Part shown: positions 22,431-60,425 of the stretch, one piece after another
How positions within the stretch are numbered: the first letter of the stretch is position 1
Layout of the letters: each line of letters opens with the position of its first letter
DNA from: an uncultured Planctomycetota bacterium
GTDB lineage: Bacteria; Planctomycetota; Planctomycetia; Isosphaerales; Isosphaeraceae
Reading direction: 5' to 3'
DNA length: 64,000 nucleotides
Assembly (NCBI GenBank): GCA_963823665.1
Contig: CAWGMQ010000003.1
Location: 384,001-448,000, forward strand
Notes under the pieces: model-generated
The model's input: the letters and a program-made list of their open reading frames with translations, nothing else
Database searches by the model: none
What the model was told of the DNA's origin: nothing
Translations under genes and position numbers: made by a program

Positions 22431-22771
22431 GGCAATTTACACCAGTGTACGGATGCTGGAAGACCTCCAGATATTGCCACTTATTGCCATTTTTCGAGGG
22501 ACTCGACGATTGCTTCCGGCCGAAGCGGTTGCTCTCCAAGTCCAATGGGCATCATCGAATAGGAACAGATCGAGGTTTTTTTCGATGATGGCAAGAGCTC
22601 ATGGCAATGGTCCCTGAAAATTGCCAACGTCACTCGAGGAGGTTGTTCACTATGTTTTTGGACCCTTTTTCCAAGCGAATTCGAGCGGAGATCGGCGCTG
22701 CCTTGGGGGCGCGGACTTCCCTGCGCGCGACCCCATCCACCGCCGGCTGCCCAAGGGAGGGAGGAATGCCC
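22431..22771 (+). repeat. Long non-coding repeat 'A', copy 1
   Basis: Colinear with 24566-25111 (+) and 60065-60425 (-); shared blocks TATTGCCACTTATTGCCATTTTTCGA and TGTTCACTATGTTTTTG. Confidence 0.85.
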
Positions 22772-23169
22772 GTTCGCGAAGCGAAGGGCGATGTTCTCGG
22801 CCGGCGGCTCAAGCACAGATTTGATTGGATGGACTCACGCGTCGCGGCGCGGACGTGCCGGTTGACGCCCGCCGGCCGCTTCGGTGAATGTCGCCAACGA
22901 GACCAGAGGCTCGCGGACTGAACGGACAGTTTGGATGGGGGAATCGCGTCGGGTGTTTTTTCCCCGTTTTTTGGCCGCGGCGCGCGCAAACGTGGAGTTT
23001 CGATCGAGCTGATCGTTGCATCCGTTGCGACGTGAAAAAAATCTCAGGATTTCTGGTCGACGAAATCGCCAAATCCGGGAAACCCGTCGCATAATCTATA
23101 TAGGTCGATCTCGATCGCCGACATTGGAGTCGGCGCGAGGGACCACCCATGTCTCTGGAACCGGAACGG

Positions 23170-23400
23170 AAAACCAGGGCGGTGCCTCGGGAACCCAGGG
23201 CGAGTGCCCTCGGGCTTTGTTGTTTTGGCCTTTCAGGCCGGATGGTGGGCTGTGCGGGATGAAATGGCCTCGAATTTTGAGCTGTGCCGAGCGTGGGACG
23301 GGGCTGGACCACGGGGAGTGGGAGTTTACACGCGGTGGTCGGAGGGATCGCCGCGCAGGAGCCGTGGCGTTTGGAGCTTCGCCTCGCGGGATCAGAATCG
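23170..23400 (+). repeat. Long non-coding repeat 'B', partial copy starting with a CCCAGGGC...GCCCT REP-like hairpin
   Basis: Shares TTTGAGCTGTGCCGAGCGTGGGACG with 23700-23724, and TGTTGTTTTGGCCTTTCAG with the minus-strand copy near 60950. Confidence 0.75.
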
Positions 23401-23614
23401 GCGCTGCAGTTCAGGTCCGGCTGCGACAGAAACGCCAATCCCGTGGGTCGCAAAATGTGACGAACGAACCCAAGACAGCTCAGGTGGCTGGAAATGCGTA
23501 ACTTGGAATTGGAGTGAAGGTTGGATCACGAAAACACCCATGAACGGTGACTTGACAACGTGGCTGAAAAGCGCGAACGAACTCAAGCTCGGCCGATTGG
23601 AGGGGCTGCCCGAA

Positions 23615-23932
23615 GGAAACCCAGGGCGAGTGCCCTGGGCTGTGTTGTTTTGGCGGTTCAGGCCGGTTGGCGGACCGTGCAGCATGAACTGCCACCGAGT
23701 TTGAGCTGTGCCGAGCGTGGGACGAGGGTGGCCGGCGGTGAGGATGAGATTTCACCCGGAGGAGCAAGCGATCGTCGAGCGGCGCTGGTGGCGTTATCCT
23801 CTCTGTTTCTCGGGATTTCCGTGCTGGTTCGGGGCGTTTCGGCCTGCCACGTCACGGGGCTATCAACGGCAATACGCGTGAGACTTTTTTGGGGTCAGGA
23901 GTCCCATTTCGTCCCATCTTGTCCCATCCACC
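23615..23932 (+). repeat. Long non-coding repeat 'B', full copy
   Basis: Colinear with the reverse complement of 60691-60996; shared GTGGCGTTATCCTCT; ends in three GTCCCAT decamers. Confidence 0.85.
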
Positions 23933-24515
23933 GATACTGATTGGAAATGCGCTGCAATGGCTCGGGGGTTTGACGCAAAGTGCAGGAGGGCACGATGATC
24001 TTGCGCCGGTAGACTGGGTGGAAGAAGCAGGGGAGGAGTCGGACGTGATGTTCAACGGCGGAGGACGGGCATGATGGCAGAGTCGCACAAAGAACTAAAC
24101 CACAGGGCACTCGGAGGTCACGGAGACAAGGCATGACGTGCAGTCGATCACCTCTGTGCCCGATGCCGACATCACCCGTCTGCGCGCCCCCTCCACCGCC
24201 GCCTGCGGCGGCAAGTCCCCAACAAGGGCGGTAGGAATACACGGCGGCGCGCGCATATAGAATGAATTTTTACGTTAATCGATCTGATCGCTGGAACCCG
24301 GAATCTTTCTGGAAATCTCCCGTTCGACCGTGCCACGAATCCGCAAGGTCGTCACATATTGTACATGAGGGCGTGCGCGGCGCGGCGGCGGAATCTTGCA
24401 GCCGGCGCGAGCCGGCTGAAGGAACCACTCGGGTCATGTTCTGAAGGCACCCCGCAATGTCCGGAGGAATTTCCTTGACGGCGGATCGGGTTCTTAGAGT
24501 CGGAACGCGACATGA

Positions 24516-24551
24516 GATTATGATTAGGATTAGGATTAGGATTAGGAATAA
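24516..24551. repeat. Hexamer tandem repeat (GATTAG)n
   Basis: GATTAT (GATTAG)x4 GAATAA, immediately upstream of A copy 2. Confidence 0.8.
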
Positions 24552-24565
24552 GATCGGGATGCCGC

Positions 24566-25111
24566 GGGTTTACACTAGTGTACGGATGCTGGAAGGCCGT
24601 CGAACCACTGCCACTTTTTGCCATTTTTTCGGCGTGGTTCAAGCGCGGGTAACACTCCTCGACGCCATTCGAGGCGCAACCGGCCCGCCGGTCCCTTCGT
24701 AGGGTGGGTGTAACCCACCATCCCATATCGTATTACGACCGGTGGGTTGCACCCGCCCTACGTACTGCCGCTCATTAACGGTGTTACCTTAGCGTCGCGT
24801 CCGTTGAACCACGCCATTTTTTCGAGGGGTTCGACGATTGCTTCGGGTGGAGTTGTTTTCTGCAAGTTCAATGGGCATCATCGAATCGGAGCAGTGCGAG
24901 GCGTTCTTCGGCGATGGCAAAAGCTCGTGGCATATGCCACCCAAAACTGCCACGGCGAATCGATGGCGCTGTTCACTATGTTTTTGGTCCTTTTTTTTTA
25001 CGGCACTCGAAGGGAGACTCGCGCCGCCTGGAGGGCGCGGTCTTCCCTGGGCGGAGGCCCCCCACCGCCGCCGCCGCCGGCACCTCCCCCGCATCGGCGG
25101 GAGGAATGCCC
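24566..25111 (+). repeat. Long non-coding repeat 'A', copy 2, interrupted by a MITE
   Basis: Removing 24631-24823 restores continuity with copy 1 (TTTACAC-AGTGTACGGATGCTGGAAG...TTGCCATTTTT-CGAGGG..TCGACGATTGCTTC). Confidence 0.85.
24631..24815. mobile_element. 185-bp non-autonomous MITE
   Basis: 12-bp perfect TIR GGCGTGGTTCAA/TTGAACCACGCC; 8-bp direct repeat ATTTTTTC at 24623-24630 and 24816-24823; internal GTAG-type REP inverted pair at 24698-24762. Confidence 0.85.
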
Positions 25112-25510
25112 ATGTCGCCTGCGGCGGCACCTCCCCTGTGCGCCTGGTCCCCCACCGCCGCCGCCGGCCACCTCACGCCTGCCCACCCCCCCACTGCCGC
25201 CGAGGGCGGCACCTCCCCCACGGTGGGGAGGAATGCTTTCAAAGCGTATTGAACTGGCAACTCTTAAGCAAATACTTCACCTGAAAAGAGCAGTTAACCA
25301 GCTATCGCGATTGAATTTGCGATTTTCACACAAAACGAAAAATGTGATCGAGAGATGGGCGAGGGCGAAAACCTGTCGCATTATATAATAGGGGCCCGGT
25401 GCGGGCATGGTGGTCGAGTCACCGTTGGGCTGCGCAGGCACGCGCCTGCACGCCCCCCCACCGCCGCCTGTGGCGGCACCTCCGCCGCGGTGTGGGAGAG
25501 GAATGCCTTT
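25055..25510 (+). repeat. Cluster of REP-like CCCCCACCGCCGCC..GGCGGCACCTCCCC...GGAGGAATGC units
   Basis: Related units at about 25058-25111, 25186-25238 and 25452-25508; also 24187-24240 and 22730-22771. Confidence 0.65.
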
Positions 25511-25995
25511 GGGCGCGGGGCCGGTGAGGCAGCGCGACACTGACCGTAGCCTGGGTAACCATGCTGGTTGGTCCGGGGCTCGACTCTCACTTCCTCTCAT
25601 CTCGTCGCATTCATTACCACGGCGCGAGCCGATTTTTTCCAATCGTCATTCCCGATGAGCGTCATTCGGTCCCTTGACCTCAGGACTCGATCGCGTCGTT
25701 TACCTCTGCGCAACGGGTGCGCCCGGGTGGCTGCGCGCCGGGCTGGGAACCGCGAGCGGGGGATCGAAAGAGCCCTGCGTTTTGCTATCAAAAGTTATCA
25801 TTTTGCTCCATGGTCGTGGAACCTGAAACATGGACGAAAGCGCAAGTCGCTCTTGCACTAGTGCGGAGCGAGCCAACCCAAGCGCAGGCGCAGAGCGCCT
25901 TGGCGTCTGGCTCGCGTCGGTCCGTGATTGAATCGATGGCACACCGCCGACGTGTCATCGCTCGCCCTCGAGATCCGGCAATTTCACAGACTGAC

Positions 25996-27942
25996 TCAAG
26001 CGCTGCTCTGGGCCAGAACAGGCTCTCGCGATCCGGCTGTGTACTTGTGCCGCCGGCGCGATGCTTCGACCTTTCGCGGCGGCCGGGGCGGGCGCCTGGG
26101 CCGCTCGGGCATGCGGCCGATTGAGCGGTTGAATGTGGCGAGCGTCAGGCCCAGGAACAGGAATGCGACTCCGATTGTGAGCAAGAGGACGATCACATGT
26201 CCAACGTAAAATGCATACCGGTTGAGCGCGCCAGCCCATTGCACCGACAGGTACGGCGTGATCTGGGCGGCGAGCGGGCAGATGCTGGCCTCGATCATCG
26301 CGCAGAACTGCATCGCGTCCTGGTCGTCCTGGCGGACGAGCCCGACCCAGGAGAGTATGCTCGGGACGATTCCTTCCTCGAGCAACATGGGCCAGCCAAA
26401 GGCGATGAGCGCGTAGGCGGCCACGCTTGCGGCGATCGCCCGACCCACGCGCGGTATCCACGTGGCGAGGGCGAGGCCGAAGCTCGCCACGGCCGCTCCC
26501 TGGGCGAGGAAGAAGGCCGTGGGCAGGCAGGCGAAGGCAAGTCGATCGATCCATCCCATGGGATCATGCGGTTGCCTGATCCGGGTGAATTCAACAGGGA
26601 TCACGGGATATGTGAATCCCACGATGAGGGCTCCAATGGCCGGGAGCAGGGCCAGAGCCGGCACGACGCGATAGGCTCCCCACCACTTCGCCAGGACGAT
26701 TCGATCGGTGGGAAGAGGAGTTGTCATGAGCACATCGAGGCTGCCACGCGTGCGCTCTTCGGCCAGCGCGGTCGGTGCGTAAATGGTCACGAGCAGCAGA
26801 CCGAATGTGACCTGCACGCCGCTCAGGAGCCCGACGGTGTCTGGGTCGAAGTCGTCGCTGGAGACGGCGAGCAGGACGCTCCAAGCCGTGCCGGCCACGG
26901 CCAGCGCGAGATAGCAGCCCCACATGATTCTGGCCAGCCTGGACGGGCGGCCGCGCCGCCATTCGCGCCAGAGGACCGGGTCGTTGTCGAGCGATGGGGT
27001 TCGGCGCCTGGCCTCGAGCCAGGCGCGAGCGCGGGAAATCAAGCGGAATACGCTGGTCGCGCGTGCTGTTGTCAACAGACGCACTCTCGCGGAGCGAAAG
27101 GCGACTATCGGCCTGGTCGTGCGAGCTGCGGTTCCTTTGGTCGTCTCGGCCCTGAGGCGAAGCACGGAGTACGCGATCAGTGCCGCCGACAAGACGATGG
27201 CTGCGGCGAGCACGAGGGCATAAAACTCGATCCCCAGGCCCCACGACGAGTCGTATGGCGCCCAGGCCAGAACGAAAGGATTGATGTTCATGTACCAGTT
27301 GGGTGGGCCGGGGAGGCCCCCGACATCTTCCAGAAGGGACCAGACGACTGGGCCGAGGATCCAGAGGGCCTCGATCCCGTACACAGCCATCAGGACCTCG
27401 TGCACTTTTGTTGCGCGGACGGAGATCGCCAGCGCGAGCGCGCACACGAGGAATGCGAGCACGAACGTGATCAGCGTGAGTGTGGCGATCGCCTCGATGA
27501 TGATTCCACCCAGGAGCCCGGCAAGTGCCAGCACTGGCACCGTGGCGCCGACCAGGGCAAAGACCGGAAGGAGCCGCGCGGCCAGCTTGCCGAGCACGAT
27601 CTCGGAGTCGGCGAGATCGGTAACCAGCATGTGGGTGAGCGTTCCGCCCGCACGATCGACGCAGATCGCACCGGCAGTCGCCGCCGGCGCGACGAGGAGG
27701 ACCAAGACGAGCTGTACTGTCGCGATGCTGTAGTAGAACGATTCACCGAGCGTTGCCAGCAATCGGATCGAGCCGCTCCCTGCGGGCCCGCCAATCGCAT
27801 TGACCACGCTGTAGAGGACCACTGCAAGTGCGAGCAGAAGCCCGAGCACGAACAGCGAACGCACGGCGTAGAGTTGCCAGCGCCTGGTGGCGGCGACGGA
27901 CTCATGAATGAAAACGGGCCCAGGCCCGAAGTGAAGCGGCAT
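25996..27942 (-). CDS. ABC-2 type transporter permease with an internally duplicated domain
   Basis: Two ABC-2-like halves (PAATAGAICVDRAGGTLTHMLVTDL...IVLGK; PTALAEERTRGSLDVLMTTPL...IVLAK); DPVLWREW linker; many TM segments. Confidence 0.8.
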   Translation of the reverse strand: MPLHFGPGPVFIHESVAATRRWQLYAVRSLFVLGLLLALAVVLYSVVNAIGGPAGSGSIRLLATLGESFYYSIATVQLVLVLLVAPAATAGAICVDRAGGTLTHMLVTDLADSEIVLGKLAARLLPVFALVGATVPVLALAGLLGGIIIEAIATLTLITFVLAFLVCALALAISVRATKVHEVLMAVYGIEALWILGPVVWSLLEDVGGLPGPPNWYMNINPFVLAWAPYDSSWGLGIEFYALVLAAAIVLSAALIAYSVLRLRAETTKGTAARTTRPIVAFRSARVRLLTTARATSVFRLISRARAWLEARRRTPSLDNDPVLWREWRRGRPSRLARIMWGCYLALAVAGTAWSVLLAVSSDDFDPDTVGLLSGVQVTFGLLLVTIYAPTALAEERTRGSLDVLMTTPLPTDRIVLAKWWGAYRVVPALALLPAIGALIVGFTYPVIPVEFTRIRQPHDPMGWIDRLAFACLPTAFFLAQGAAVASFGLALATWIPRVGRAIAASVAAYALIAFGWPMLLEEGIVPSILSWVGLVRQDDQDAMQFCAMIEASICPLAAQITPYLSVQWAGALNRYAFYVGHVIVLLLTIGVAFLFLGLTLATFNRSIGRMPERPRRPPRPPRKVEASRRRHKYTAGSREPVLAQSSA

Positions 27943-28273
27943 CGGCGACCTCCTTGCGGCGATGCGCACCTTCTCGCTCTCCGGTCGAGGAGCGCATAGA
28001 CAATATGATTACGAGACCGACCACCCCTGACAAGCTTGCACGGCTCGACTCGCAATTTTGTTCAACCGCTCAATGAAAGATTCCGGGCTCTGGGGCCGTA
28101 TCTGTAAGAGCTGCGTGGCGAGCGGACTCCGAGAGTCAAGATCGAGATTTGAAACCCCTTTATTGAATGACTACGGTCCATTGCTGCACCCAAGACCGCG
28201 CGTTAGGATCGGACGACTGCCAAATGTGTGACACCAGGGCACTGAGGCAACGACGCACTTCTGGAGGGTATCG

Positions 28274-31200
28274 ATGAGCGATTTACAGCCGAACGGCTCG
28301 CAATCGTCATCGAACATGCCTCTGACGTATGTCGTCGATTTGTGCGAGCGGTTCGAGATCGAATGGCGAGGCGGTGGGACGCCGCGGATCGAGACGTATC
28401 TCGAAGGCATTCCGCCGGGGGAGCGCGAGAGGCTGCTGCGCGAGCTGCTGGCGGTGGAGGTGGAGCTGCGGATTTCTCAGGGCGAGAATCCGACTCCGGA
28501 AAAGCTCCGCGTGCGTTATCCGGACTGGGGCCATGCGATCACGATCGCCCTGGAGCGCGGTCGCCAGGCGGCGGAGGCGGCACGGGAGGGGATGGAGCGA
28601 CCGGCCGGCGTGAGGAACGACGGCAATGCGCTTGGTCCAACGCGGAGACTTTCCTCGAGCGGCATCGATCACGCCGACGTGACGGTTGGCTCGGTATGCT
28701 GGCCCGATGCCGGCTCAAGCGGCGGCGGGATCGGTTCCAGGCCGTCGCGGCTCGGGCGGTACGAGGTGATCAGCGAGCTGGGTCGAGGCGGATTCGGCAC
28801 GGTGTATCTCGGACGCGACGGCGAGCTTTCGCGGCCGGTGGCGATCAAGGTGCCGCGGCGGGGGCTGCTGCGCTCGACGGAGCAAGTCGATTCATTTCTC
28901 GCTGAGGCACGAAACGCAGCAGGCTTGTGCCATCCCGCGATCGTGGCGGTGCACGACGTGGGTCGATTCGATGACTTCGGGGTTTTCGTTGTCTTCGAGT
29001 TTGTCGAGGGGCGTAACCTTGCCGAAATACTGGGCTCGGAGCGGTTGTCACCGAGTCAGATCGCGGGGCTCTTGATTCCGATCGCGGAGGCGGCCCACCA
29101 TGCGCATCGGGCCGGTCTGGTCCATCGCGACCTGAAGCCGTCGAACATCCTGATCGATGCGGCCGGCGGGCCGCACATCACCGACTTCGGGCTGGCGATT
29201 CGCGAGGACTTGCAGGATTTGCGGGTGGGCGAGATTGCGGGGACACCGCATTTCATGGCACCGGAGCAGGTGCGAGGCGAGACGCATCGACTGGACGGCC
29301 GGACCGACGTCTGGGCCATCGGGGTGATGCTCTACCGCGCGCTCCTCGACCGTCAACCGTTCGGGGGCCGGGATTACAACGAGATTTTTGACGAGATTCT
29401 GCATCGCGACCCCAAGCCTCCCCGGCAGATCAACGACCGGATTCCGCGCGAGCTGGAGCGGATCTGTCTCAAGTGTCTTGCCAAGCGAATGGCCGATCGC
29501 CACGAAACGGCCGCTGACCTTGCCGACGATCTCCGCCGCTGGGCGACCGCGGAGGCATCAACCGACGCATTTTCCAAGACGCCGCATGTGACCGACGTGA
29601 CTGCGCGGGGCACTTCGATTTCGCGGGTGGTTCCCAAGGGGCTGCGCACGTTCGAGGTCGAGGATGCCGATTTCTTCCTCAAGCTGGTGCCGGGCCCGCG
29701 CGACTGCGACGGCGTGCCGGAGGTGATTCGCGGCTGGAAGCGGCGGATCGAGGAGCGCGACCTATCCCGCACGTTTTCGGTAGGTCTGCTTTACGGCCCG
29801 TCCGGCAGCGGCAAATCATCGTTGCTCAAGGCGGGGGTGATTCCTCGGCTCTCGCGTCATGTTCGTCCGGTGTATGTCTCGGCATCCGCGAGCGGGACTG
29901 AAATGCGCATCCGGGCCGCTCTGGACGGTGAAGCGGGCATCCTGCCGGCTGGCGGCGAGCTTGATCTGGCCATTGCCGCGCTGCGGGAGCGTGGGGCAAG
30001 GCAGCGTGGCTCGAAGGTGCTTCTGGTGCTGGACCAGTTCGAGCAGTGGCTGCAGAGCCACCCGGACGATCTCGACGGAGAGCTGGTGCGTGCGCTGCGG
30101 CAATGCGATGGACTCTGCTGCCAGGCGATCTTGCTCGTGCGCGACGACTTCTGGATGGCGACGACCCGATTCTTCCAGGCGCTTGATGTGCGGCTGCTGG
30201 AAGGGGTGAACTCGGCGCCGGTGGAGCTGTTCGACCTGCAGCACGCCGGTGTTGTGCTGGGTGAGCTTGGTAAAGCGCTCGGCCGCGTCAAGGAGGGGCC
30301 GATCGTGCCGGGCTCGGAAGAAGCGCGGTTCATCGAGAGGGCGGTGAACGAGCTGGCGGGGCCGGATGGCCGGGTGATCCCGGTGCGTCTGGTGCTGTTT
30401 GCGGAAATGGTGCGGCACCGCGACTGGAAAACGCGGACGCTGCGTGAGCTTGGGGGGATGAAAGGAATCGGCGAGATCTTTCTGGAGGAGAGCTTCTCGG
30501 CGCGGTCGGCCCCGCTGCCTCATCGCGTTCACCAGCGGGCTGCGCAGGCGGTTCTTCAGGCGCTCTTGCCGGATTCTCGATCGGACATCCGCGATCAAAT
30601 CAAGCCGGTGGCGCTGCTGCGCGAGGCGTCGGGGTACGCCAACCGGCCCAGCGATTTCGACGAGCTCATGTACATCCTCGACAACGAGCTGCGGATGGTG
30701 ACGCCCGTTGATCCAATGTCGCAAAGCGGCGAGATCGATGGTGCGCCTGGACGCAGGGGAGGGACTTACTATCAGCTCACGCACGACTACCTGGTGCCGT
30801 CGCTCCGCCAGTGGCTTTCGCGCAAGCAGCGCCAGACAAGGCGCGGCCGGGCGGAGCTGCAGCTTGCCTCGACGACGGCGCTATGGTGTGACCGGCCCGA
30901 CTCGCGCCGGCTGCCGTCGTTCGTGGAGTGGCTCGAGATCCTGGCCTTTACCCGGGCGCGGACCTGGACCACGTTCGAGCGGCGGATGATGAAGCAGGCG
31001 ATGCGGCACTTTGTGGTTCGCGCGGCGGCGGCACTCCTACTGGCGTTCGTGGGTGTTTATGCGATCACGACGATGCTGGCCCGGGAGCGAGCGCATTCTG
31101 CCCTGAAAGCGGCGCTGCTGGCTGGCGAGGCGGACTTGCCGCGATCACTTGCCGACTTGCGTTACCATAGCGACACGCTGCGGCCGAATCTGGAACGACT

Positions 31201-33157: not shown

Positions 33158-33167
33158 CTGGAGCTCG

Positions 33168-49888: not shown

Positions 49889-50788
49889 GTGGCCATAGTC
49901 ATCAATCGACTCATGTTCGGAAAGAAGCCCGCCCCATTATGGGATGAGCTGGATCCGGCGCCGGTGCGAACACCAGGACGACTGCGCCACTTGAAGCTCA
50001 GCCCGGTCGAGGCCGTTGTCATCTTGCTCACGTTGGCGGTTTTGACTGGGTTGCTTCTCCCCGTTCTTATCGGCCCAGATCGTGATTACTCCCACAGGTT
50101 TCCGCCGGCTAACGCGAGCGCCTCGAATGGCTTCGGTGCGATTGCAGGTGAATACACGCAAGGAGACGGGCTCGGCCTGAGCTGGGCCCTGAGCATTCTT
50201 CCGGATGGGCGATACTCATTCCGCTGGTCTGGCTGTGCAGGCGTGTATAACCGCGAATCCGGCTTTTCGAAACGCGTTGGCGAATACCTGCTGCTGTCGT
50301 CGGTCGCGCCGATCGAACCGCAGATCCCCCGTCTCTTTCTTCCGGTCAAATGGGGCCGCCGCACGTACTTGATTCCTCCCGAGGAGCTAGAGCAGTTCAG
50401 TGACGCGATCATCAAGGGCGACGAGCCGCGAAATGAAGGCGCCCGCGGCCACTTCTATGTCGTCGGCCTGGCCGAACCGGTCGGCGGCGTGCCGGAATTA
50501 CCTGAGCCATGGGCCACATTCCTGCGAAAGAACGCAGTGATCGGCACGGTCGTCGAGGTGAGGGAGCGCGGTCGAGTCAAGGTCGACGTCGGATCGGCGG
50601 ACGGCGTGAGCGCCGAGTCCATCATAACCATTCAGGGACGGGAGCACCTTTTGACCCGGCATCTGAGGATCGTCGCTGTCAACGAGCGAACATCTTTAGC
50701 GGAGGATGTGTACCCAGACGAGCGTGAGAAACCCCTCGCGGTGGGAGACAACATCGTCGTGGCGAAGGAGACGCTCGACTGTCAATGA
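49889..50788 (+). CDS. Hypothetical membrane-anchored protein, paralog of 58646-59614
   Basis: Shared PAxxWDELDPAP, LSILPDGRYS, RESG..KRVGEYL.LS, RTYLIPPE, GVPELP. Confidence 0.75.
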   Translation: MAIVINRLMFGKKPAPLWDELDPAPVRTPGRLRHLKLSPVEAVVILLTLAVLTGLLLPVLIGPDRDYSHRFPPANASASNGFGAIAGEYTQGDGLGLSWALSILPDGRYSFRWSGCAGVYNRESGFSKRVGEYLLLSSVAPIEPQIPRLFLPVKWGRRTYLIPPEELEQFSDAIIKGDEPRNEGARGHFYVVGLAEPVGGVPELPEPWATFLRKNAVIGTVVEVRERGRVKVDVGSADGVSAESIITIQGREHLLTRHLRIVAVNERTSLAEDVYPDEREKPLAVGDNIVVAKETLDCQ

Positions 50789-50846
50789 TGCTGTCGCTCT
50801 TCGGATTAGAGCGTAGGCAATCACGATCGCGTCGCAGGAGGCCGGG

Positions 50847-53042
50847 ATGATGGCAACTTGGAAGCCGCCGTTGAACGTGATCTTGACAATCGGCGTGCTC
50901 GCGACGGGCGTCCACGTTCGATCTGAAGCACTCCAGGCAACGCAGGATCGAGGGGCGGACGCCGGGAAACTCCCGGTCACGGCACCGCTGGCCACACCAA
51001 GCCCACTCGATTTCCCCGACGATCCGCTGCCGAAATACGCTCGGGCGCGACTCGGGACCAATCGGTTTCACAGTCGCGATAACCTGGACGTCGCGTCTTA
51101 CACACCCGATGGAAAGTTCGCATTCACACTCGGAAACGGAAGAATCCGTGTCTGGGACTCGGCGACCGGACGTATCGTTCGAGCTATCGGCGATTCGGAA
51201 AGCGACTTCCGCGCGATGGCGATTTCGCCTGCCGGCAACACGCTCGCAACAACGGCAGGATTCCCCAGCCGCCTTCGGCTGTGGGACCTGCCTTCGGGAC
51301 GCGAGCAGCGACGATGGCACGTGGCCAAAGCCGAGACTTATTACGGACAACTGTGCTTTTCGCCCGATGGCAAGACGCTCGTCGTGGGCGTCTCAACGAA
51401 CGATCAAACCGCGGGGGCACGAAACCAGTTTGTCGATCTGCTCGACCTCGCCGCGAAGACCGAACGCCGTCGCCGGATTGTCGGTGACTGGTTTGGGCTG
51501 CGGGATCTCAAGTTCTCGCCCGATGGCAAGATGCTCGCTGCAGCGAGCATCCAGTGGATCGATGTCAAAGGCCGGACAACTCGGACGATGGAAGGATCGA
51601 CCCATATCTGGAACGTCGCCACCGGTGAGGAACGCCTTCGGTCCAAGGTTGATGGGTATAGCGTTCACTCGGTCGCCTTTTCGTCAGACTCAAACACGCT
51701 CGCGACCGCGATCGAGGATGGCTCCGTCCGTCGCTATGACGTGGGCTCGGGAAAGGAAGTCATGCCGCGCCTGAGCGAGCGGTTTCCGATGCCCCGGCCC
51801 GGCGAACCTGAGGCCCTCCGAGCGTGGTCACGCGGGATGCATTCCGTGGCGTTTTCTCCCGACGGAACGATCCTTGCCGCTGGAGCCGCCGGAACCGACG
51901 AAGACGGCGATCCGTCCCTTGCACGCATTTACTTGTGGGACGCCGTTCGCAGCCGAAAGCTTGCTGAGATTCCGGTGCATTACCAGGTCGTCTCGTCCCT
52001 CTCGTTCTCGCCCGACGGCAAAACGCTGGCCTCGGCCGGTCACGAGGAGGCCGTGCTCTTCTGGAACGTCGCCACTGGCCGTGAGGCGTTTCCGCAGGGC
52101 GGACATTGCTCGCAGATCACCGCGATTGCAATTTCGCGCGCAGACGGAACGGTCTTCACAAGCGGCCTCGACGCCACAATCCGGCAATGGGACCCGAGTT
52201 CGGGCCGCGAGCTCGCGGTCATTGCCAGCTTGGCGAATACGAGCGCTCAATCTCTAGCTGTTGCCCCAGACGGCAAATCGGTCGTGTTCGGCGGCATGCA
52301 CGGGAGGCGCGCCCTGTGGAGCATTCCGCGGGCGCGAGAGATTGATCGCTTTCCTCATGCCAATCCGGAAGCTTCCGTCCACCACGTTGGCTTTTCCCCC
52401 GACGGTAGCCTGGTGGCGTCAGACCTGCATCTCTGGGACGTCGCCACGGGCCGAATACGCGTGCAATTCCCGTATGACAAAAGCGCGGACGGCGGCTCTG
52501 CTTGCTTCTTCCCCCTCTTTTTTTCTCATGACGGCAAGGAGGTGATCGCGACGGAGAACCGCGGCGTGCGGATCCTGGACGTCGCATCCGGCAAGGAACG
52601 GCGATGGGCCGTACGGGCAAGTCTAGAATCAGATCGACTGGCACTGAGCGTCGACGGCCGATTCCTGGCGGCAGGCGGAGCGGGACCCCGCGTCGGATGG
52701 GGAATTAACCCCCGAATCCGCGTTTGGGAGCTCGCGTCGGGTCGGGAGGTCGCACGCTTACGTGGCCATGAAGAGAAGATCAACGGTCTGTCCTTCTCAC
52801 CGGACGGCCGCCTTCTGGCTTCATGCAGCGGGGACTATCGATCGGACAAGGATATGACCGTTCGCGTCTGGGACCTCGCCACAGGCCAAGAGCGGCGACG
52901 ATTCGACGGCCACCGCGGCCCGGTCAGATCCGTCGCGTTCACGCCCGATGGCCGATGGGTCGTTTCCGGCAGCGAGGATTGCACGGGATTAGTCTGGGAC
53001 GTTTCGGACTTGGGAGTAAGTCCAAAGCCGGATCCGGGCTGA
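50847..53042 (+). CDS. WD40-repeat beta-propeller protein
   Basis: DPLPKYARARLGT leader; repeated (F)SPDG..LA...WD units; GH...VAFTPDG...LVWDV end. Confidence 0.9.
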   Translation: MMATWKPPLNVILTIGVLATGVHVRSEALQATQDRGADAGKLPVTAPLATPSPLDFPDDPLPKYARARLGTNRFHSRDNLDVASYTPDGKFAFTLGNGRIRVWDSATGRIVRAIGDSESDFRAMAISPAGNTLATTAGFPSRLRLWDLPSGREQRRWHVAKAETYYGQLCFSPDGKTLVVGVSTNDQTAGARNQFVDLLDLAAKTERRRRIVGDWFGLRDLKFSPDGKMLAAASIQWIDVKGRTTRTMEGSTHIWNVATGEERLRSKVDGYSVHSVAFSSDSNTLATAIEDGSVRRYDVGSGKEVMPRLSERFPMPRPGEPEALRAWSRGMHSVAFSPDGTILAAGAAGTDEDGDPSLARIYLWDAVRSRKLAEIPVHYQVVSSLSFSPDGKTLASAGHEEAVLFWNVATGREAFPQGGHCSQITAIAISRADGTVFTSGLDATIRQWDPSSGRELAVIASLANTSAQSLAVAPDGKSVVFGGMHGRRALWSIPRAREIDRFPHANPEASVHHVGFSPDGSLVASDLHLWDVATGRIRVQFPYDKSADGGSACFFPLFFSHDGKEVIATENRGVRILDVASGKERRWAVRASLESDRLALSVDGRFLAAGGAGPRVGWGINPRIRVWELASGREVARLRGHEEKINGLSFSPDGRLLASCSGDYRSDKDMTVRVWDLATGQERRRFDGHRGPVRSVAFTPDGRWVVSGSEDCTGLVWDVSDLGVSPKPDPG

Positions 53043-53218
53043 TCCACGCTTCCAGCGGCTTTTTCCCAGAAACAAACCGAGCTTCACCCTGCCTTAAGGT
53101 AGCACCTCTACAATCCGTGTGAAACCGTTCAGAAGAACCCCACGGCAGATCAAAGAACCAACCGCGTAGAAGGCACAGCGTTTCGATCTTGCCGGGCGGT
53201 TTTACAGGAGACACACGA

Positions 53219-53968
53219 ATGAGCATCCTCGGAACGACAAAAGGGATCGTCCTCGCGACGGCGGCGTTGTTAGCCCCGGCGCTCGCCCTGGCCCAACCGC
53301 CGGGGCCGCCGGACGACGGCCCGCCACCTCCACGCGAGCGCCGCGGCGCACCGGCAGCGGGCCCCGCCAACGACCAGCCGCGCCGCCCCGGGCCGCCGAT
53401 CATGGCCGCCCTTGACACCAATCGCGACGGCGAGCTCTCCCCGGAAGAAATCCGCAACGCCGTCGCCGCGTTCAAGAAGCTCGACCGCAACCACGATGGA
53501 ACACTCGATCGCTCCGAGCTCGAACCCCGCGGCGGTGAACTGGGTGGACCAGACGGACCTCCCGGCGGACAGCCTCGTGCCGGTCGGTTCGGCGGTCCGC
53601 CGCCCGGTGGAGAAGACAGACCGCCGGGTGGTCCCGATGGCCCGCCGCCGGGTGGACCACCCCGAGAAGCCGGCCCCGGCCGGCCCGCGATCGGCCGCGT
53701 TCTGCCGCCGTTTGTCCGCGAGGAGCTGTCGCTCTCCGACCGCCAGCAAAAGCAAATCGCCGACCTCGAGAGCAGCACGAAGTCGAAGCTGGAGTCGATC
53801 CTCACACCCCGTCAGCTCAAGCAACTGCGCGAACACCTGGCAAGTGGACCGGGCGGACCTGGCAGACCCGGCTTCGGCGGTCCCGGCGGTCGTAATCGCG
53901 GAGGGCCTCCCGGCGACGGCGCGCCCGGCGACGACAACGAGCCTCCCGTGAGGCCCCGCCGGCCGTGA
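53219..53968 (+). CDS. Secreted Gly/Pro-rich EF-hand protein
   Basis: Signal peptide ...ALALA-Q; EF loops DTNRDGELSPEE and DRNHDGTLDRSE; helical LSLSDRQQKQI...ILTPRQ segment. Confidence 0.82.
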   Translation: MSILGTTKGIVLATAALLAPALALAQPPGPPDDGPPPPRERRGAPAAGPANDQPRRPGPPIMAALDTNRDGELSPEEIRNAVAAFKKLDRNHDGTLDRSELEPRGGELGGPDGPPGGQPRAGRFGGPPPGGEDRPPGGPDGPPPGGPPREAGPGRPAIGRVLPPFVREELSLSDRQQKQIADLESSTKSKLESILTPRQLKQLREHLASGPGGPGRPGFGGPGGRNRGGPPGDGAPGDDNEPPVRPRRP

Positions 53969-54163
53969 TCGACAGCTTGCAATGAACACGCTCGTGAGAC
54001 CGTGGTTCGGACGGGGAACCTCCAACCCCCGCATGTGAAGGCGACCGCCGCGGAGGTTCGGGCTCACGCCCGAGGCTCGACGACGTGCGCCCCGTCCGAA
54101 CCACGTACTCACCGCGTTGCCACATTCCGCGATCCCCGCCAAATTCCTGGAGCCCCGGCCGCC

Positions 54164-55396
54164 ATGTCTTCTCGACGAGTGAATCGGCAATGTCCCTTAA
54201 TCATCGTCGTCTTGATCGCCAGCGCATGGACCGGCCTGGTCCGCGCTGACGAACCACCCAGACAAGAAACCCCAGCCAAACCACCGCCATCTGCCGTGCT
54301 CGAATCCTCCGCCGGCCTGAAACCGATCGGCGGCCGCTGGTTCATTCGCGAGGGCAACCCGCCAACCTATATCTTCAAAGACGCCGGCACCTATGTCGAC
54401 CTCTTCAGCTACCACCTCGCCGATTCGAACAAGGACGGCATCCCCAACCTGGCGATCCGCCACAACGACAAGTCTCTCTTGATCGATAGCCAGGGCTACC
54501 CGAACCATCCCACAGCGATCTTCCCCAATACCGGCAATCCGAACCGGATTCGCGTCCAGGATTTTCACTTCCGGCTGCCAATCGAGCCAAAGCTCGCATC
54601 CAGCATCACACGTGTGCCGATGGGGCCAATAGGAATGGCGCTCAACGGCGTGGTCTTCTTCAACCCATTTGAGGCGGGCGGGATGAACGCCATCGAGGGC
54701 TATTCCGAGGTGTGGCTCGATTCTTGCTGCGGCCACCCGCAGCAGCACGGCGTCTATCACTATCACAAGTACCCGAGCTGCGTGAAATCGCCGTTCACCG
54801 ACGACGGCCGGCGCCACTCCCCTGTGCTAGGCTTCGCGTTTGACGGCTTCCCGGTGCACGGCCCCTTCGAAGAGTCCGGCGTGATGGCCAGAGACCTGAA
54901 AGGCGAGCGCGCGCTCGACGTCTGCAACGGCCACACCGACCCGGCCCGCGGCTATCACTACCATGTCACTCCGTCTCGCTTCCCCTATATCATCGGGGGA
55001 TATGCCGGCGTTCCCGATCCGGCCAATAACCCCATGCTCCGTCGCGGCAGCGTCGGGCCAATCGCCGACAACGCCGACCGCTCGGCGACGAAGGAGTTTG
55101 GCATTCGCTCGGTCACACCCGGCAACGCGGCACGCGGCAAGACCCACACGCTCCGGTTCGATCTCGACGCGGCGACCCGCAGCGGCTCGCCGCCGGGAAT
55201 TCCGAGCTGGGTGCAGGTCGGCCCGTTTGAGGCCTCGAAGATCGAGCGTCGGGGTGATACGGTGATGGCGGAGATCACCATCCCTGCCGACTCACCAGCG
55301 GGCGTCTTGCTCGACGCCCATATCGAGTTCGGAAAACCCGGCTCGGGCCTGGTGCGGGTGCTCAAGAAAAACGACGCTCTGCGAGTCGTACCATGA
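54164..55396 (+). CDS. YHYH family protein
   Basis: GPIGMALNGV, GHPQQHGVYHYH, GFAFDGFPVHGP, LDVCNGH...YHYH. Confidence 0.88.
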   Translation: MSSRRVNRQCPLIIVVLIASAWTGLVRADEPPRQETPAKPPPSAVLESSAGLKPIGGRWFIREGNPPTYIFKDAGTYVDLFSYHLADSNKDGIPNLAIRHNDKSLLIDSQGYPNHPTAIFPNTGNPNRIRVQDFHFRLPIEPKLASSITRVPMGPIGMALNGVVFFNPFEAGGMNAIEGYSEVWLDSCCGHPQQHGVYHYHKYPSCVKSPFTDDGRRHSPVLGFAFDGFPVHGPFEESGVMARDLKGERALDVCNGHTDPARGYHYHVTPSRFPYIIGGYAGVPDPANNPMLRRGSVGPIADNADRSATKEFGIRSVTPGNAARGKTHTLRFDLDAATRSGSPPGIPSWVQVGPFEASKIERRGDTVMAEITIPADSPAGVLLDAHIEFGKPGSGLVRVLKKNDALRVVP

Positions 55397-55420
55397 GCAA
55401 ATGAATAAGGGTCCTCGACC

Positions 55421-56092
55421 GTGCGCGTCCTCGTGATCGAAGACGAACCCGATTTGCTCCAGGCGCTGGTGCAGGCGCTTCGCGAAGAGGGCTACGCCGC
55501 CGATCAAGCCGCCGACGGCCGCGAAGGGCTGTTCAAAGCTGAGGGATGCGAATACGAGGCGATTGTGCTCGACCTGTTGCTCCCCGGCCTGGACGGCCTC
55601 GAAGTTCTACGAAGGCTGCGGAAGAGTCGAAGAACCCCAGTGCTCATCCTCACCGCCCGCGACGGTGTCAGCGATCGCGTGCGCGGGCTCGACACTGGCG
55701 CAGATGACTATATCGTCAAACCTTTTGCTCTCTCCGAGCTGCTCGCTCGCCTCCGCGCGCTGATTCGCCGCAGCGCAGGCATGGCCGACCCCGTGATCCG
55801 GATCGGCGACGTCGCGATCGACACCGCCCGGCGCCTGGTCGCACGCGACGGCGTCGACGTGCCGCTCACCGCCCGCGAGTACGCCCTGGTCGAGCTGTTG
55901 GCCCTCCATCGCGGCAAGCTGATCACGCGCACGGTGATCTACGAGCAGCTCTTCGGCGACGATGACGATACGCTTTCCAACGTGGTTGAGGTGCACGTTT
56001 CGCACATCCGTAAGAAGCTCGGCAAAGACTTCATCCAGACCCGGCGCGGCCAGGGTTACCAGATCGATTCGAGCGGAGGCGACGATGTTTAA
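55421..56092 (+). CDS. OmpR-family response regulator
   Basis: RVLVIEDE, VLDLLLPG, LTARD, GADDYIVKPF, winged-helix end TRRGQGY. Confidence 0.95.
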   Translation: MRVLVIEDEPDLLQALVQALREEGYAADQAADGREGLFKAEGCEYEAIVLDLLLPGLDGLEVLRRLRKSRRTPVLILTARDGVSDRVRGLDTGADDYIVKPFALSELLARLRALIRRSAGMADPVIRIGDVAIDTARRLVARDGVDVPLTAREYALVELLALHRGKLITRTVIYEQLFGDDDDTLSNVVEVHVSHIRKKLGKDFIQTRRGQGYQIDSSGGDDV

Positions 56093-57612
56093 GTCGCTTC
56101 GTTACCGGCTCCAGGCCTGGCACACCCTGATCCTGCTGCTCGTGGTGATTGGATTCGGCGGAACGCTCTACGTCGAGGCCTCCCGGCGGCGGTTCGACGA
56201 GATCGACGGCGAGCTTCTGGCCGCCGCGCGCGTCCTCGAAGGCGTCCTTCGAACCCAGGCGCCTGCCCCGCGGACGCGGCCGCCAGAAGGGCCGGGATTC
56301 AGGGGCGGTCCACCGCCGGACCGCCCGCCGCGCCCGCGCGAAGGCCCCGGCCCTCCCGGAATGCGCCTCATGCCTCCGCACCCGCCGCGGTTCCAGCCCA
56401 GCGCACTGAGCTTGCCGCATTCATTAATGGATCGATACTCGCAGCCCGGAGACGAGCCCTATTTCGTCGTGCGTGACGCCGGCGAGAATGTGCTACTCGC
56501 AGAGCCGCCCGAATACGCCACACAGGTACCGCCAGATCCATCCGTCGGTCGCTGGTACGAGTCGCACTCGCGCAACCGCGGCGCGCTCCGCGAGGTCACC
56601 CTGCTCGGTCCGGCGCGATCGACCATCCTCGTCGGACGACCAATCCACCACGAGATGGCCGGCCTGAGGCGCATGGCGTGGCAGCTCGGCTTGACCGGGC
56701 TGGGCGTGTTTCTGGCCGGCTGCGCCGGAGGCTGGTGGCTGTCGTCGCGCGCCGTGCGCCCGATCGTTGCGATGAGCGAAACGGTCTCCGGAATCAATGC
56801 CAGCAGCCTGTCACAACGGCTCGATCTCGAAGGCGTCGATACCGAGCTCGGCAGTCTGGGCACACTCATCAACACCATGCTCGAACGCCTCGAGAGGCTC
56901 GTTTGAGCAGCAGGTGCGGTTCACGGCGGATGCATCCCACGAGCTGCGAACGCCGTTGACCGTGATCCTCACGCAGGTGGAGCTAGCCCTTTCTCGGCCG
57001 CGCGAGGCCACGGCATATCGCGAATCGCTCCAAGCGTGCGGTCGCGCAGCGACGCGCATGAAGTCGCTCGTTGACGACCTTCTGACATTGGCCCGCGCTG
57101 ATTCCGGTAAGCTCGAGCTGCGCGCCGAGCCGATCGACCTCGCCCGGATCGCGGAGGGAAGCGTCGCGCTCTTGCAACCCCTGGCGCTCGAGCGCGGAGT
57201 TCGGATTCTCCGTGAGATCAACCCCGCGCCGCTCAACGGAGACCCCGAACGGCTCGGTCAAGTGATCACAAACCTTGTAAGCAACGCGATTCAGTACACT
57301 CAACCCGGCGGCAAGGTGGTCATCTCCACCCGCTGCGACGGTAGCTCCGCGCTCCTCATCGTCGAAGACACCGGTGTGGGAATCCCCGAAATCGACCTCC
57401 CGCTCGTGTTCGATCGGTTCCACCGCGTCGACAGCGCGCGGTCGCGCGGATCAGGCGGCAGCGGATTGGGATTAGCGATCTGCCAGGGCATCGTCAAAGC
57501 GCACGGCGGTGAAATCGCCGTGGCGAGCACTCTCGATCACGGTTCACGATTCACGGTGACGATTCCGATGCAGAATCGAAATCGCGACGCTGGCTCGCCG
57601 ATTTCGGGATAA
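56085..57612 (+). CDS. Sensor histidine kinase (HAMP-HisKA-HATPase), frameshift near 56900
   Basis: Two TM helices; FTADASHELRTPL; NLVSNAIQY; DTGVGI; GGSGLGLAI. Confidence 0.92.
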
Positions 57613-58010
57613 ACGCCGGCGCCGTACCAATGCGCTTCAATCAGCTACAGCCTGCCGCCGGGCGGGCCGGCATTGAGCACGAAGATAAGAGATGCTGACC
57701 TGCGTCATTTGCGTCATCTGCGTCAGCCCCTTACGCAGCCTGAAGTTACGAACGAGATTGAGATCGCCGTTCACGCAGCGCCTGCGTAATCCGCCCGCTT
57801 CGCCCAATTCGAGTGCGGTAATAACCCGAGTAATCGGAGCATTCAGTGCGTTCAAGGGCTACCGATGGTAAGCGCGCCGAGTCTCGAATGACCGTCTCCG
57901 AGCTCGCGCGATACGGGTGGCGAGCGCATACACGAAAACGACTGTGATTCCGCAGGCGGCTTTTTGTTATCGTGGTATTGTGCGAGATCTGTTTCCGAAG
58001 AGGTAACTCG

Positions 58011-58643
58011 ATGGCCACGGTAACTGCACCTACCGCTCTCCGGATCGGCCCCGCCGACAAGGGTCGCCGCATGACCCTCGAACAATTCATCGAAGCCGAT
58101 TGGGAAGAAGGCTGGCTCTACGAACTGGCAAGGGGAGTTGTCGACGTGGTTGAGGTCTCTCGTCCGTGGCACGGGCGTATCGTCGATCGCGTTGCTGAAA
58201 TGTTCATTCTGTATCGACGCCAACGCCCCGGCGTCATCCAGTATCGAGCCGGCGGCGGAGAATGCCGGCTCCGACTTCCCGGCATCGTTTCCGACCGACA
58301 CCCGGATCAGGCGATTTATCTCGACCCTGAGCCAAGCGGACCGAACGTGTGGACGCGCTGGGTTCCGCACATCGTGGTCGAAATCGTGAGCCCCGGCGGT
58401 GAAGAGCGTGACTTCGTCGAAAAACGCGAAGAGTACCTGCGAATCGGAGTGCGCGAGTACTGGATCCTTGATGCAGTAGGACGACGGATGCACTCGCTGG
58501 TCCGTGCCGGCGACGTCTGGGAAGAATCAATCGTGACGGAAGGTGGCGTTTACCAGACAAACCTGCTCCCAGGGCTCGAAGTTCGGCCGGGAGAGTTGTT
58601 GGGAAATGATGCGATCGGCACTGCGGCCGAGTCTGAGCAATAA
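58011..58643 (+). CDS. Uma2/DUF820 family putative endonuclease
   Basis: MTLEQF, YELARG, PD, VVEIVSPG, KREEYLRIGVREYWILD. Confidence 0.9.
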   Translation: MATVTAPTALRIGPADKGRRMTLEQFIEADWEEGWLYELARGVVDVVEVSRPWHGRIVDRVAEMFILYRRQRPGVIQYRAGGGECRLRLPGIVSDRHPDQAIYLDPEPSGPNVWTRWVPHIVVEIVSPGGEERDFVEKREEYLRIGVREYWILDAVGRRMHSLVRAGDVWEESIVTEGGVYQTNLLPGLEVRPGELLGNDAIGTAAESEQ

Positions 58644-58645
58644 CT

Positions 58646-59614
58646 TTGGGGGGGCACGGCGGCGTGAAGTTCAGCCGAGCCATAATTGAGAAGGCCCCTC
58701 CCGCGATCTGGGATGAACTCGATCCCGCCCCCGCACCAAAGCCCCAGTGTCGCCCTTCGCTCCGCGACGGGATCCTTCTTCAAGACCGCACCCGCGGGAA
58801 GCCCGGCCAGCGCCGAGGACTGACCACAAAGCTCTGCGAGCTGTTCGTGACTCTGGCGATGGTCGCGGTGCTCGCCGCCTTGCTCGTCCCCGCCGCGGAT
58901 TATGATTATTCTTACCACTACTCCCCGCCGCCGCCGAACGCAGGTGTTGAATTTGCCCCCGTCGCCGGCGAATACCGCCTCGGGGCGCATCGCGGACGTG
59001 GCTGGTGCCTGAGCATCCTGCCGGACGGGCGATACTCCCTCCTTATTTCAAGCTGCTCCGGTGTCGGCTATCGGGAATCAGGATCGGTCAAACGCGTCGG
59101 CGAATACCTCGTGCTTTCCGCGGCGGCGGCAATGGAGGAATCGCGGATGGCCCGTGTCTTCCGGCCCGTGAACTGGGATTGCCGCACTTATCTGATACCG
59201 CCAGAGAAGTTCCCGCAATTCATCGAAGCGATCGTCAAAGCCGACGATCCGCGCATCGGGCCAGGAAAGTTCTACGTCAAAAACCTCGACCAGCCGGTCA
59301 CCGGAGTTCCCGAATTACCGCCAGAATGGGCGGCAACCCTGCGGAATCGTTTGATGCTCGGCACGGTCGTCGAGATGTTGGCGGGAGGTCGCGCCAGGAT
59401 TGATCGCGGATCCGCAGAGGGCATCATCGCCGGAAGCGAGCTGACCGTTCAGGGACTGGATCGCTTCAGCATTAGTCGGAAGGTGAAGGTCGTCGCCGTC
59501 GAACAGCGATCGTGCACGGTGCAGCACTTCTACCACAAAGAGTTTCAAGTGCCGCTTGAACTGGGGTGCAAGGTCGTCGCGCCGCGGGACGCTCGACACG
59601 CTCTAGAACGGTGA
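58646..59614 (+). CDS. Hypothetical membrane-anchored protein, paralog of 49889-50788 (start uncertain)
   Basis: PPAIWDELDPAP, LSILPDGRYS, RTYLIPPE, RARIDRGSAEGI. Confidence 0.75.
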   Translation: MGGHGGVKFSRAIIEKAPPAIWDELDPAPAPKPQCRPSLRDGILLQDRTRGKPGQRRGLTTKLCELFVTLAMVAVLAALLVPAADYDYSYHYSPPPPNAGVEFAPVAGEYRLGAHRGRGWCLSILPDGRYSLLISSCSGVGYRESGSVKRVGEYLVLSAAAAMEESRMARVFRPVNWDCRTYLIPPEKFPQFIEAIVKADDPRIGPGKFYVKNLDQPVTGVPELPPEWAATLRNRLMLGTVVEMLAGGRARIDRGSAEGIIAGSELTVQGLDRFSISRKVKVVAVEQRSCTVQHFYHKEFQVPLELGCKVVAPRDARHALER

Positions 59615-60064
59615 TGCGACCCTGTCCAAATTGCAAGGTGGGTGCGACCACCACGTTCACACGGCCTGCCGTGGCTTGGATCAACCCCACGAACCGAACG
59701 CCACGACTCGCATAGATATGAAAAACGTCACTGCCTTCCAGACCAGACATCCTCTCGCGAGCGCAACCCCGGACCAGCGAATTCCCGCGCCGCGGCACAC
59801 TTGCGCTCACTTTCGTGTCTCAATCGTGGGAACAGCTCCCGCGGACCCCCCAAAACGTCGTCATCGTCGTCATCTCCTTTCCACATCAGGAGTTACGAAT
59901 GACGACGTTTTCGAAGCCGAAAAATCCTAGAAGCAACTCTTGAGCCCATCGGCACTTACGAATGACGACGTTTTTCGCGCCCCCCGCGTACCCCTCGTCC
60001 CGATGCTCTGCGTCGAAACATCCCCCCCCGCTCCGCAGCCCGCTCGGCGATGACGCCCCGTGTC

Positions 60065-60425
60065 GCATTCGCCACCCCTCCTCCGCCCTTGTGGAGGCCG
60101 GGCCGCCGCAGAGTGCGGAGGGGGGCTTGCGCCGAGGGAAGACCTGCGCGCCCAGCCGGCGCGAATCCCCCTCGAGTGCCGTGAAAAAAACCGGTCAAAA
60201 ACATAGTGAACAGCACCGGCGATTTGCGATGGCAATTTTTGGTGGCACGTGCCAAACGCTCTTGCGACCGCCGAAAAATGCCTCGCCGTGCGCCTATTCG
60301 ATTACATTCATTGAATTTACAGAACAGCCAATCCGCGCCAGGAGATCGCCGCAGCCTTCGAAAAATGGCAATAAGTGGCAATACTGGGACGGCTATAAAG
60401 CATTCGTACACTACTGTAAATTGCC
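60065..60425 (-). repeat. Long non-coding repeat 'A', copy 3 (inverted)
   Basis: Reverse complement contains TATTGCCACTTATTGCCATTTTTCGA (60358-60383) and TGTTCACTATGTTTTTG (60196-60212). Confidence 0.85.

Follow-up and report, generated by a model that had tools for sequence, protein, structure and literature searches.

What is the dispersed non-coding repeat, here called element A, that occurs in diverged copies within a 64-kb stretch of planctomycete DNA (positions 384,001 to 448,000 of contig CAWGMQ010000003.1, family Isosphaeraceae; hereafter the window) and keeps blocks of sequence in a changing background? A sequence-only reading of the window had described three copies of a unit of about 340 bp, and had considered a non-coding RNA, a regulatory cassette and a non-autonomous element. 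As judged from sequence comparison, element A is probably a DNA platform, resembling the cos and pac regions of phages, for the predicted binding of the small-terminase-like protein (TerS) of a terS cassette, with most copies probably being non-autonomous derivatives that would still be recognized in trans.

Anatomy of element A and agreement among its sites

Element A is a non-coding repeat of fixed length; its core measures 213-218 bp in 136 of 144 cores (median identity 0.58-0.76) and runs from TACA-N4-TGTAC to TGT(T/A)CACT. Searches of the window with nhmmer and a 144-copy profile placed the cores at 22438..22652 (+; copy 1, a solo copy with no terS behind it; E 1e-49), 24571..24978 (+; copy 2, matched as 24571-24637 and 24813-24977) and 60204..60418 (-; copy 3, also solo; E 6e-45). 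These copies are homologous, as had been claimed (71-77% identity; BLASTN E 1e-33 to 1e-47), and the features by which they had been recognized were all found, including the 26-bp block common to copies 1 and 3 (22472, +; 60358, -), the motif TGTTCACTATGTTTTTG in all three (22644, 24970, and 60196 on the minus strand) and a palindrome at the start of each (22438, 24571, 60407). Their reported colinearity holds as homology and fails for copy 2, the left array of which is interrupted by an inverted-repeat element at 24632-24814. The proposed unit of about 340 bp gave way to the core of 213-218 bp, at the ends of which pairwise alignments pile up; the GC-rich hairpin with GAATGC, taken to end the unit, is a separate REP-like (repetitive extragenic palindromic) repeat outside the core (approximately 22700..22771, +), which stands alone at 24189, 25187 and 25454 and is missing behind many copies, and GAATGC by itself occurs 49 times in the window. 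Nor is the element limited to three copies, as profile searches, in which 150 candidates were scored per genome, gave 77 matches in G000, the genome of the window, and 108 in its sister G001.

The layout of the core is described here for copy 1 (+). The left end (22438..22456) consists of the TACA-N4-TGTAC palindrome and a conserved GC and holds one half-site of the palindrome found in recA promoters of the family. It is followed by the left heptamer array (22474..22490), with sites L1 and L2 (TTGCCAC, TTGCCAT) at a 10-bp period, which are predicted sites for a TerS-like helix-turn-helix (HTH) protein, and by a weakly conserved central motif (approximately 22535..22572), which is loosely similar to an IHF/HU-type bend site without matching the consensus exactly. 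The right heptamer pair (22601..22627) comprises an inverted site R1 (22601-22607) and a direct site R2 (22621-22627), and the right end, TGTTCACTA (22644..22652), is an imperfect inverted repeat of the left end. Each copy thus carries two or three heptamers at a 10-bp period on the left, and an inverted site and a second site on the right.

Several observations point to the heptamers as sites that are kept in agreement with one another. The top mutual-information pairs in element A are equivalent positions of heptamer sites, for which classes include TTGCCAY, GCGCCAC, CTGCCAC, GTGCCAC, GTACCAC, GTCCCAC, GTCTCAC and TTCCCAC. With 28 of 144 copies left uncalled by site calling, left site 2 and R1 match at three variable bases in 113 of the 116 called copies (shuffle mean 68, maximum 79). 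In a tree built with the site columns excluded, the CG site class appears repeatedly, on separate branches, and 4 of 4 independent pairs on supported branches are concordant in their sites, a number too small for significance. Conservation along the element has a 10.5-bp period (power 1.99, as compared to 0.40 for period 3), length variants cluster at +/-10 bp, and the orientation of R1 and R2 flips between subfamilies; since the assembly frameshifts ordinary genes (e.g., AcrB pieces), 1-bp length differences were left out of the evidence. One copy (L128) has lost the interior between L1 and R2. Among gene-less copies, 51 disjoint nearest pairs differ at 2.4% of motif columns and 18.6% of spacer columns, and the 16 closest such pairs at 2.5% and 10.3%, respectively. 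Column differences between copies thus bear out the initial description of conserved blocks and diverged spacers and, along with site covariation and within-copy agreement, support the idea of selection on protein-binding sites. In G000, solo copies fall mainly into the site classes TGCCA (40 of 64) and CGCCA (22 of 64), which are the classes preceding the two terS genes of that genome that are linked to element A; that solo copies keep matched sites mirroring these genes suggests recognition in trans.

A linked small-terminase-like gene

Neighbor genes of element A are functionally unrelated (59 scanned) apart from two recurring families, one of which is a small-terminase-like HTH gene. Its product, an HTH protein of 120-135 amino acids with a predicted N-terminal three-helix unit, matches the PHROG 2538 small terminase with E values of 1e-9 to 2e-4. 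This terS-like gene lies downstream and on the same strand in 10 of 165 element A copies (one match being weak) and on the opposite strand in none; likewise, a terS leader was found behind 10 of 142 copies and behind none of 142 controls. None of the three copies in the window is directly upstream of terS. Among 105 terS loci examined, element A is upstream of 15, mostly ending 135-160 bp before the start, and these 15 loci cluster on the protein tree (5 changes; 14 when shuffled). In L090 and L411, terS is followed by a gene for the large terminase (TerL; PF03237, E 6e-26), with 33-50% identity to phage TerL. Based on the profile match and gene order, we regard the linked HTH protein, with moderate confidence, as a putative TerS; the N-terminal HTH, the predicted helical oligomerization part and the gene order directly before terL point to this assignment, and the sequence match is moderate.

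More than one copy of the terS-like gene is present in 38 of the 121 genomes of the family, with 9 in G000, and in many terS genes without element A a phased heptamer array of this kind, with a 10-bp period, lies next to the start codon. Most terS genes without element A are preceded by a strongly conserved leader of about 55 nt (GCCGGCCAGCC...GCTGAGAACCGCGAG; L379-L394, L405, L406, L416), for which no Rfam family was found in six loci at E 0.5, so that an impression of a C4-like RNA was unsupported. Leader matches of this type near the 144 element A copies are all co-oriented with them (14 downstream, 9 upstream, none opposite), and broken terS genes or truncated leaders lie behind some copies (L111, L198, L190, L187, L227, L174). 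The window itself holds, about 750 bp behind copy 2, a 5'-module remnant of the other terS-like cassette class, comprising leader, heptamer array and first codons (25731..25871, +; nhmmer E 4e-19). Pairs of terS and terL are mostly without head genes. A portal and a peptidase were found 6-9 kb from a terS-terL pair without element A in G000 and G001, with no capsid recognized; this syntenic cluster (L483/L484, G000 C2:82-92 kb; L486 in G001) contains the portal, a papain-like peptidase, a protein with a UvrB/C motif and terS-terL, and its portal is 68-69% identical to viral contig L365. A 580-amino-acid open reading frame (ORF) behind terS in L413 is a peptidase M3. A separate expansion was observed in G008, a 60%-complete genome without element A, which carries 28 terS-like genes with their own array type.

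Variation in the predicted second helix of the TerS-like proteins appears to track variation in the sites, as proteins with Arg at motif position 3 tend to have G as the third base of their heptamers. With a strict array caller (false-chain rate 55/2000), non-A genes showed G in 13 of 13 cases with Arg3 and in 1 of 8 without Arg (p 7e-5), and all 35 gene-site pairs, including 14 A-linked ones, showed G in 22 of 22 and 2 of 13 cases, respectively. Helix position 3 ranked first of 222 protein features (0.67 bit; next 0.24), with 7 and 8 changes on the tree. Among callable loci fetched later, 10 of 12 agree with the rule by hand count. An earlier caller with register errors, applied to 27 loci, had given p 0.002 for the residue-base link, and a loose caller (48% false chains) gave p 0.008 overall and 0.005 for A-linked genes. 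The loose caller also provided weaker hints that Gln at position 6 goes with C at base 2 (3/3 vs 4/51) and a hydrophobic residue at position 7 with CAA (3/6 vs 3/48).

Distribution and evolution in place

The presence of element A is patchy, with 5 strong genomes among the 121 of the family. In addition to G000 and G001, profile searches found at least 18 matches each in G091, G053 and G517, six distant matches in G049 and single weak matches in seven more family genomes. A strict pattern search of the GTDB collection retrieved 64 stretches in four records, all from Planctomycetota or metagenome assemblies of the Isosphaeraceae group; element A was also found on 7 metagenome contigs, a search of four soil DNA runs yielded short pieces only, and there were no strict-pattern matches in 400 genomes of the phylum outside the family and no matches in viral contigs. 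Distant relatives keep the arrays and the center and lack the terminal palindromes; weak R2 matches in L333 and L334 sit inside ORFs and look like chance.

Copies are intergenic and sit in a patchwork of other repeats; a promoter-like module is often located 250-350 bp upstream of them. When loci of G001 and G000 were compared (37 vs 70), 12 shared a flanking gene; on inspection by hand, one was on the wrong side and one shared only the recurring ATPase gene described below, and about 10 keep side and orientation. Copies at shared loci are 43-76% identical to each other and 73-85% identical to paralogues of their own genome, and since identity is thus lower between species than within a genome, the positions appear to be old or hot spots while the sequences would have been exchanged or replaced. 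Neighboring copies share their strand in 14 of 14 multi-hit loci, two of which represent one duplication. Flanks showed no matches or covariation that would indicate a target-site duplication, and the terminal inverted repeat is imperfect (8-10 bp), with its left part being half of the conserved palindrome.

The second recurring neighbor gene lies downstream of element A in three genomes (L006, L058, L104, L230, L066, L054; 50% identical) and has a Walker A motif (ATPase) with no family match in profile scans; it may be primase/helicase-like. At L179:2748-5467, a 553-bp direct repeat (97% identical) that contains element A flanks a third copy and a gene pair, presumably PIN-like and toxin-antitoxin-like, for which no NCBIfam match was found.

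Terminal half-sites and the recA-promoter box

recA promoters of the family share the palindrome TA(G/C)TGT(T/A)C-N4-GTACA (24 of 27 sites above 10 bits), which is likely the SOS box of Isosphaeraceae. The ends of element A equal one left and one right half-site of this box and never the full box. A full LexA (SOS) operator within the element was accordingly rejected, as only half-sites are present and the best score has a median of 5.3 bits, compared to about 20 at recA; involvement of LexA is thus a guess. The extended box, TA(G/C)TGT(T/A)C-N4-GTACA(C/T)A (L241-L299, L133; G000 sites in L300-L307), was observed before recA and before a radical SAM gene of the PA0069 family (L304), and in degenerate form before lexA. 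Another dispersed repeat carries a complete recA-type box (L300:1726 and 3087, L301:1881, L302:1887) and in three cases is followed by a Ser/Thr kinase gene or a fragment of one.

The left end was also considered as a dif-like site, an idea that was abandoned since its variable bases are located in the arm and not in the spacer. The part of PMC3025954 available to us reports no dif prediction for Planctomycetes. The MraZ-binding repeats described in the accessible part of PMC5282649, (AAAGTGKN3)n with 10-bp repeats, have a similar motif; this candidate was rejected, as PF02381 was found in none of five genomes and neither mraZ nor such repeats were found before rsmH.

Weighing the explanations

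If element A is a TerS platform, an oligomer of the HTH protein would bind both the left array and the right heptamer pair, and would bend or wrap the intervening DNA of approximately 120 bp in the manner of lambda TerS at cosB. Within the parent cassette, such docking may both repress terS and position TerL, and the terminal half-sites may tie the element to a second dimeric protein, possibly LexA. The least certain steps are that terminase cutting at or near the platform might start recombination or packaging and thereby move solo copies, and that copies might be overwritten by paralogues. A number of results weigh against this interpretation. No terS match was found for 155 of 165 copies, both full TerL genes of G000 follow terS genes without element A, and no portal, capsid or integrase was found among ORFs up to 4.5 kb from six A-linked terS loci. 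The TerS-like protein reaches no Pfam cut-off, has no match in annotated phages or IMG/VR, and in fold searches (PDB, BFVD) gave best rows weaker than E 0.001. R1 is degenerate or flipped in many G091 copies, which were left uncalled, and, as copies were found by motif or profile search, motif conservation is inflated. As to the residue-base rule, it was first noticed by eye in some of the data later used to assess it, and the strict caller yielded arrays for only 22 of 90 non-A terS genes. With independent pairs numbering 2 on supported branches (7 when all branches are counted), a sign test was not significant, and under the loose caller non-A genes yielded p 0.17 and the helix residue was not the top-ranked feature.

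Alternatively, element A may be only the operator or promoter of a terS-like cassette that was inserted many times and lost its genes, with solo copies being inert relics or, at most, titrating the protein. The truncated leaders and broken terS genes behind some copies, the terS 5' remnant in the window and the repression of its own promoter by SPP1 TerS (in the available part of PMC4737164) fit this view; we nevertheless consider it unlikely, as sites are kept 4- to 8-fold better than spacers even between close gene-less pairs, entire clades, 23-31 copies in size, have no gene or almost none, and copies at loci shared by two species are closer to own-genome paralogues than to each other. Another view is that a host factor, such as LexA, a nucleoid protein or an OmpR-type regulator, binds element A as a regulatory cassette, which merely happens to precede terS among other genes. 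This view would account for ends that equal recA-promoter half-sites, for a co-oriented downstream gene in 67 of 93 cases and for the side and orientation kept, by hand count, at about 10 of 11 loci common to G000 and G001. It would leave unexplained, if a single host factor were involved, the several site classes matched within copies, and it becomes improbable given unrelated neighbors (59 scanned) at distances of 231-3074 bp, an orientation bias that disappears without divergent intergenic regions (22 vs 13, p 0.18), the median of 5 bits, with no full box, compared to about 20 at recA, and the patchy presence in 5 strong genomes of 121.

The size of the element, phased arrays on both sides, an imperfect terminal inverted repeat of 8-10 bp, same-strand neighbors (14/14) and the copy pair that forms a 553-bp direct repeat around toxin-antitoxin-like genes could also suggest an att-like module in which arm sites flank the core recognized by a tyrosine or serine recombinase, or else a miniature inverted-repeat transposable element (MITE). 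This is quite improbable: neither element A nor the heptamer doublet lies within 1.5 kb of 20 tyrosine-recombinase matches, the doublet occurs outside element A once in 70 matches, there is no target duplication and no recurring transposase or integrase beside copies, and the predicted empty site had no exact match, while 1-mismatch matches included no such junction save one element end. Similarly, a tyrosine-integrase att site was rejected for want of a cognate integrase beside the arm sites and of a shared core at the empty site. A structured RNA has the least going for it. By complementarity, R1 could pair with the left sites and with R2, and a terminal helix with an R1:R2 hairpin reaches a mean pair probability of about 0.3; however, covariation is strongest between identical direct repeats (the top covarying columns being mostly identical-base pairs), no other helices covary, the RNAalifold covariation term is -0.1, mean folding z is -1.1 and -0.8 (40 copies), Rfam gave no match, and neither the flips of R1/R2 between subfamilies nor the 10.5-bp periodicity would be expected, so that base pairing is a highly improbable source of the covariation. 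The absence of a kept reading frame, as first reported, was upheld (any given frame is open in at most 46 of 144 copies), and six-frame translation, frame-openness and period-3 tests for a coding signal in the element were all negative. The original suggestion of a non-autonomous element or regulatory cassette comes close to the best reading, its RNA part was not supported, and the association with small-terminase-like genes, our principal result, lay outside what it could show.

The TerS platform remains our preferred reading. A bolder version, which we regard as possible though doubtful, is that element A could be the cis unit of undescribed terminase-driven elements, in which a TerS-like family with a helix-to-base code would serve about a hundred matched 215-bp platforms scattered over the chromosome and TerL would cut at these, leading host DNA into borrowed capsids or to platform copying; this would amount to programmable, SOS-linked gene transfer in large-genome planctomycetes. 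The platform reading gives an abundant unexplained repeat of very large planctomycete genomes a concrete identity, and the natural series of protein-site pairs makes a small-terminase recognition code directly testable. If solo copies are indeed packaging or cutting sites, terminase modules can take the form of chromosomal repeat families and bring about the transfer of host genes in settings other than prophages, satellites and gene transfer agents.

Other repeats and genes in the window

The insertion in copy 2 (24632..24814, no strand assigned) is an unrelated MITE-like element of 183 bp with inverted ends and, internally, a REP pair of the GTAG type; its target duplication measures 9-10 bp. 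Elements of this type (150-185 bp, GGTTCAA...TTGAACC ends, 9-10 bp target duplication) also occur in L025, L314, L174/L193, L039 and L095 and have landed in the left array of element A at four loci, in both orientations. A companion repeat B, which terminates in an inverted heptamer and a phased triplet, lies at 23615..23931 (+), 23167-23371 and 60996-60693 (-), and one copy (60796-60697) is weakly similar to the terS leader (E 6e-4). Promoter-like repeat modules with CATATT/CATAAT-type ends (22090-22160, 23030-23105, 24240-24375, 25330-25395, 61170-61100) often precede element A or terS leaders. The window also contains two Acido-Lenti-1 RNA motifs at gathering score (62712-62758 and 62778-62824, -) and a tandem duplication of AcrB-type genes that are broken up by frameshifts, probably through errors of assembly (6-5935).

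Comparison with known systems

A literature search, with subscription journals outside its cover, found no description of element A or of dispersed orphan-terS cassettes. The described systems that come closest are compared here as presented in those parts of the cited sources that were available to us. The cosB region of lambda-like phages resembles element A in its size of 120-200 bp, its place directly before terS, its multiple TerS sites (one of them inverted) with strict spacing and a bend site between them, and in a specificity that depends on recognition-helix residues reading single bases (PMC4669245, PMC9026076). It differs in that there is one cos per phage genome, with cosN/cosQ and head genes behind it, whereas element A has heptamers at a 10-bp period, 77-108 copies per chromosome, mostly without terS, no recognized nick site and a non-lambda TerL. 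The pac regions of SPP1/SF6 are similar in that direct repeats extend over the promoter and start of the small-terminase gene and TerS binding doubles as autorepression, and differ in that SF6 TerS reads shape with little sequence specificity, while in element A sequence appears to track a helix residue (PMC4737164); pac is also not a chromosomal repeat family. The cos-rpp module of phage-inducible chromosomal islands (PICIs) resembles it in that a satellite encodes a TerS-like HTH protein together with a dedicated site for it; PICIs are integrase-bearing islands with one cos that lacks repeated R sites (PMC9026076). Pseudo-pac sites are likewise host sites that start packaging, though as short chance matches and not as 215-bp homologous modules (PMC10996546).

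Taken as a cos/pac region, element A has repeated predicted TerS sites with constrained spacing, the assignment to TerS being by correlation, and a position just upstream of terS for 10 of 165 copies and 15 of 105 terS loci and not for the rest; it would work like such a region, yet does not lie in a phage or satellite genome and for that reason falls outside this class. In their arrangement, copies are reminiscent of the Neisseria intergenic mosaic elements (NIME) and the bacterial interspersed mosaic elements (BIME/REP), which, like element A, form mosaic intergenic islands of several repeat modules that are homogenized within a genome. Those families are palindromic hairpins or target repeats tied to transposases, whereas element A is not built on hairpins and the gene linked to it is terminase-like.

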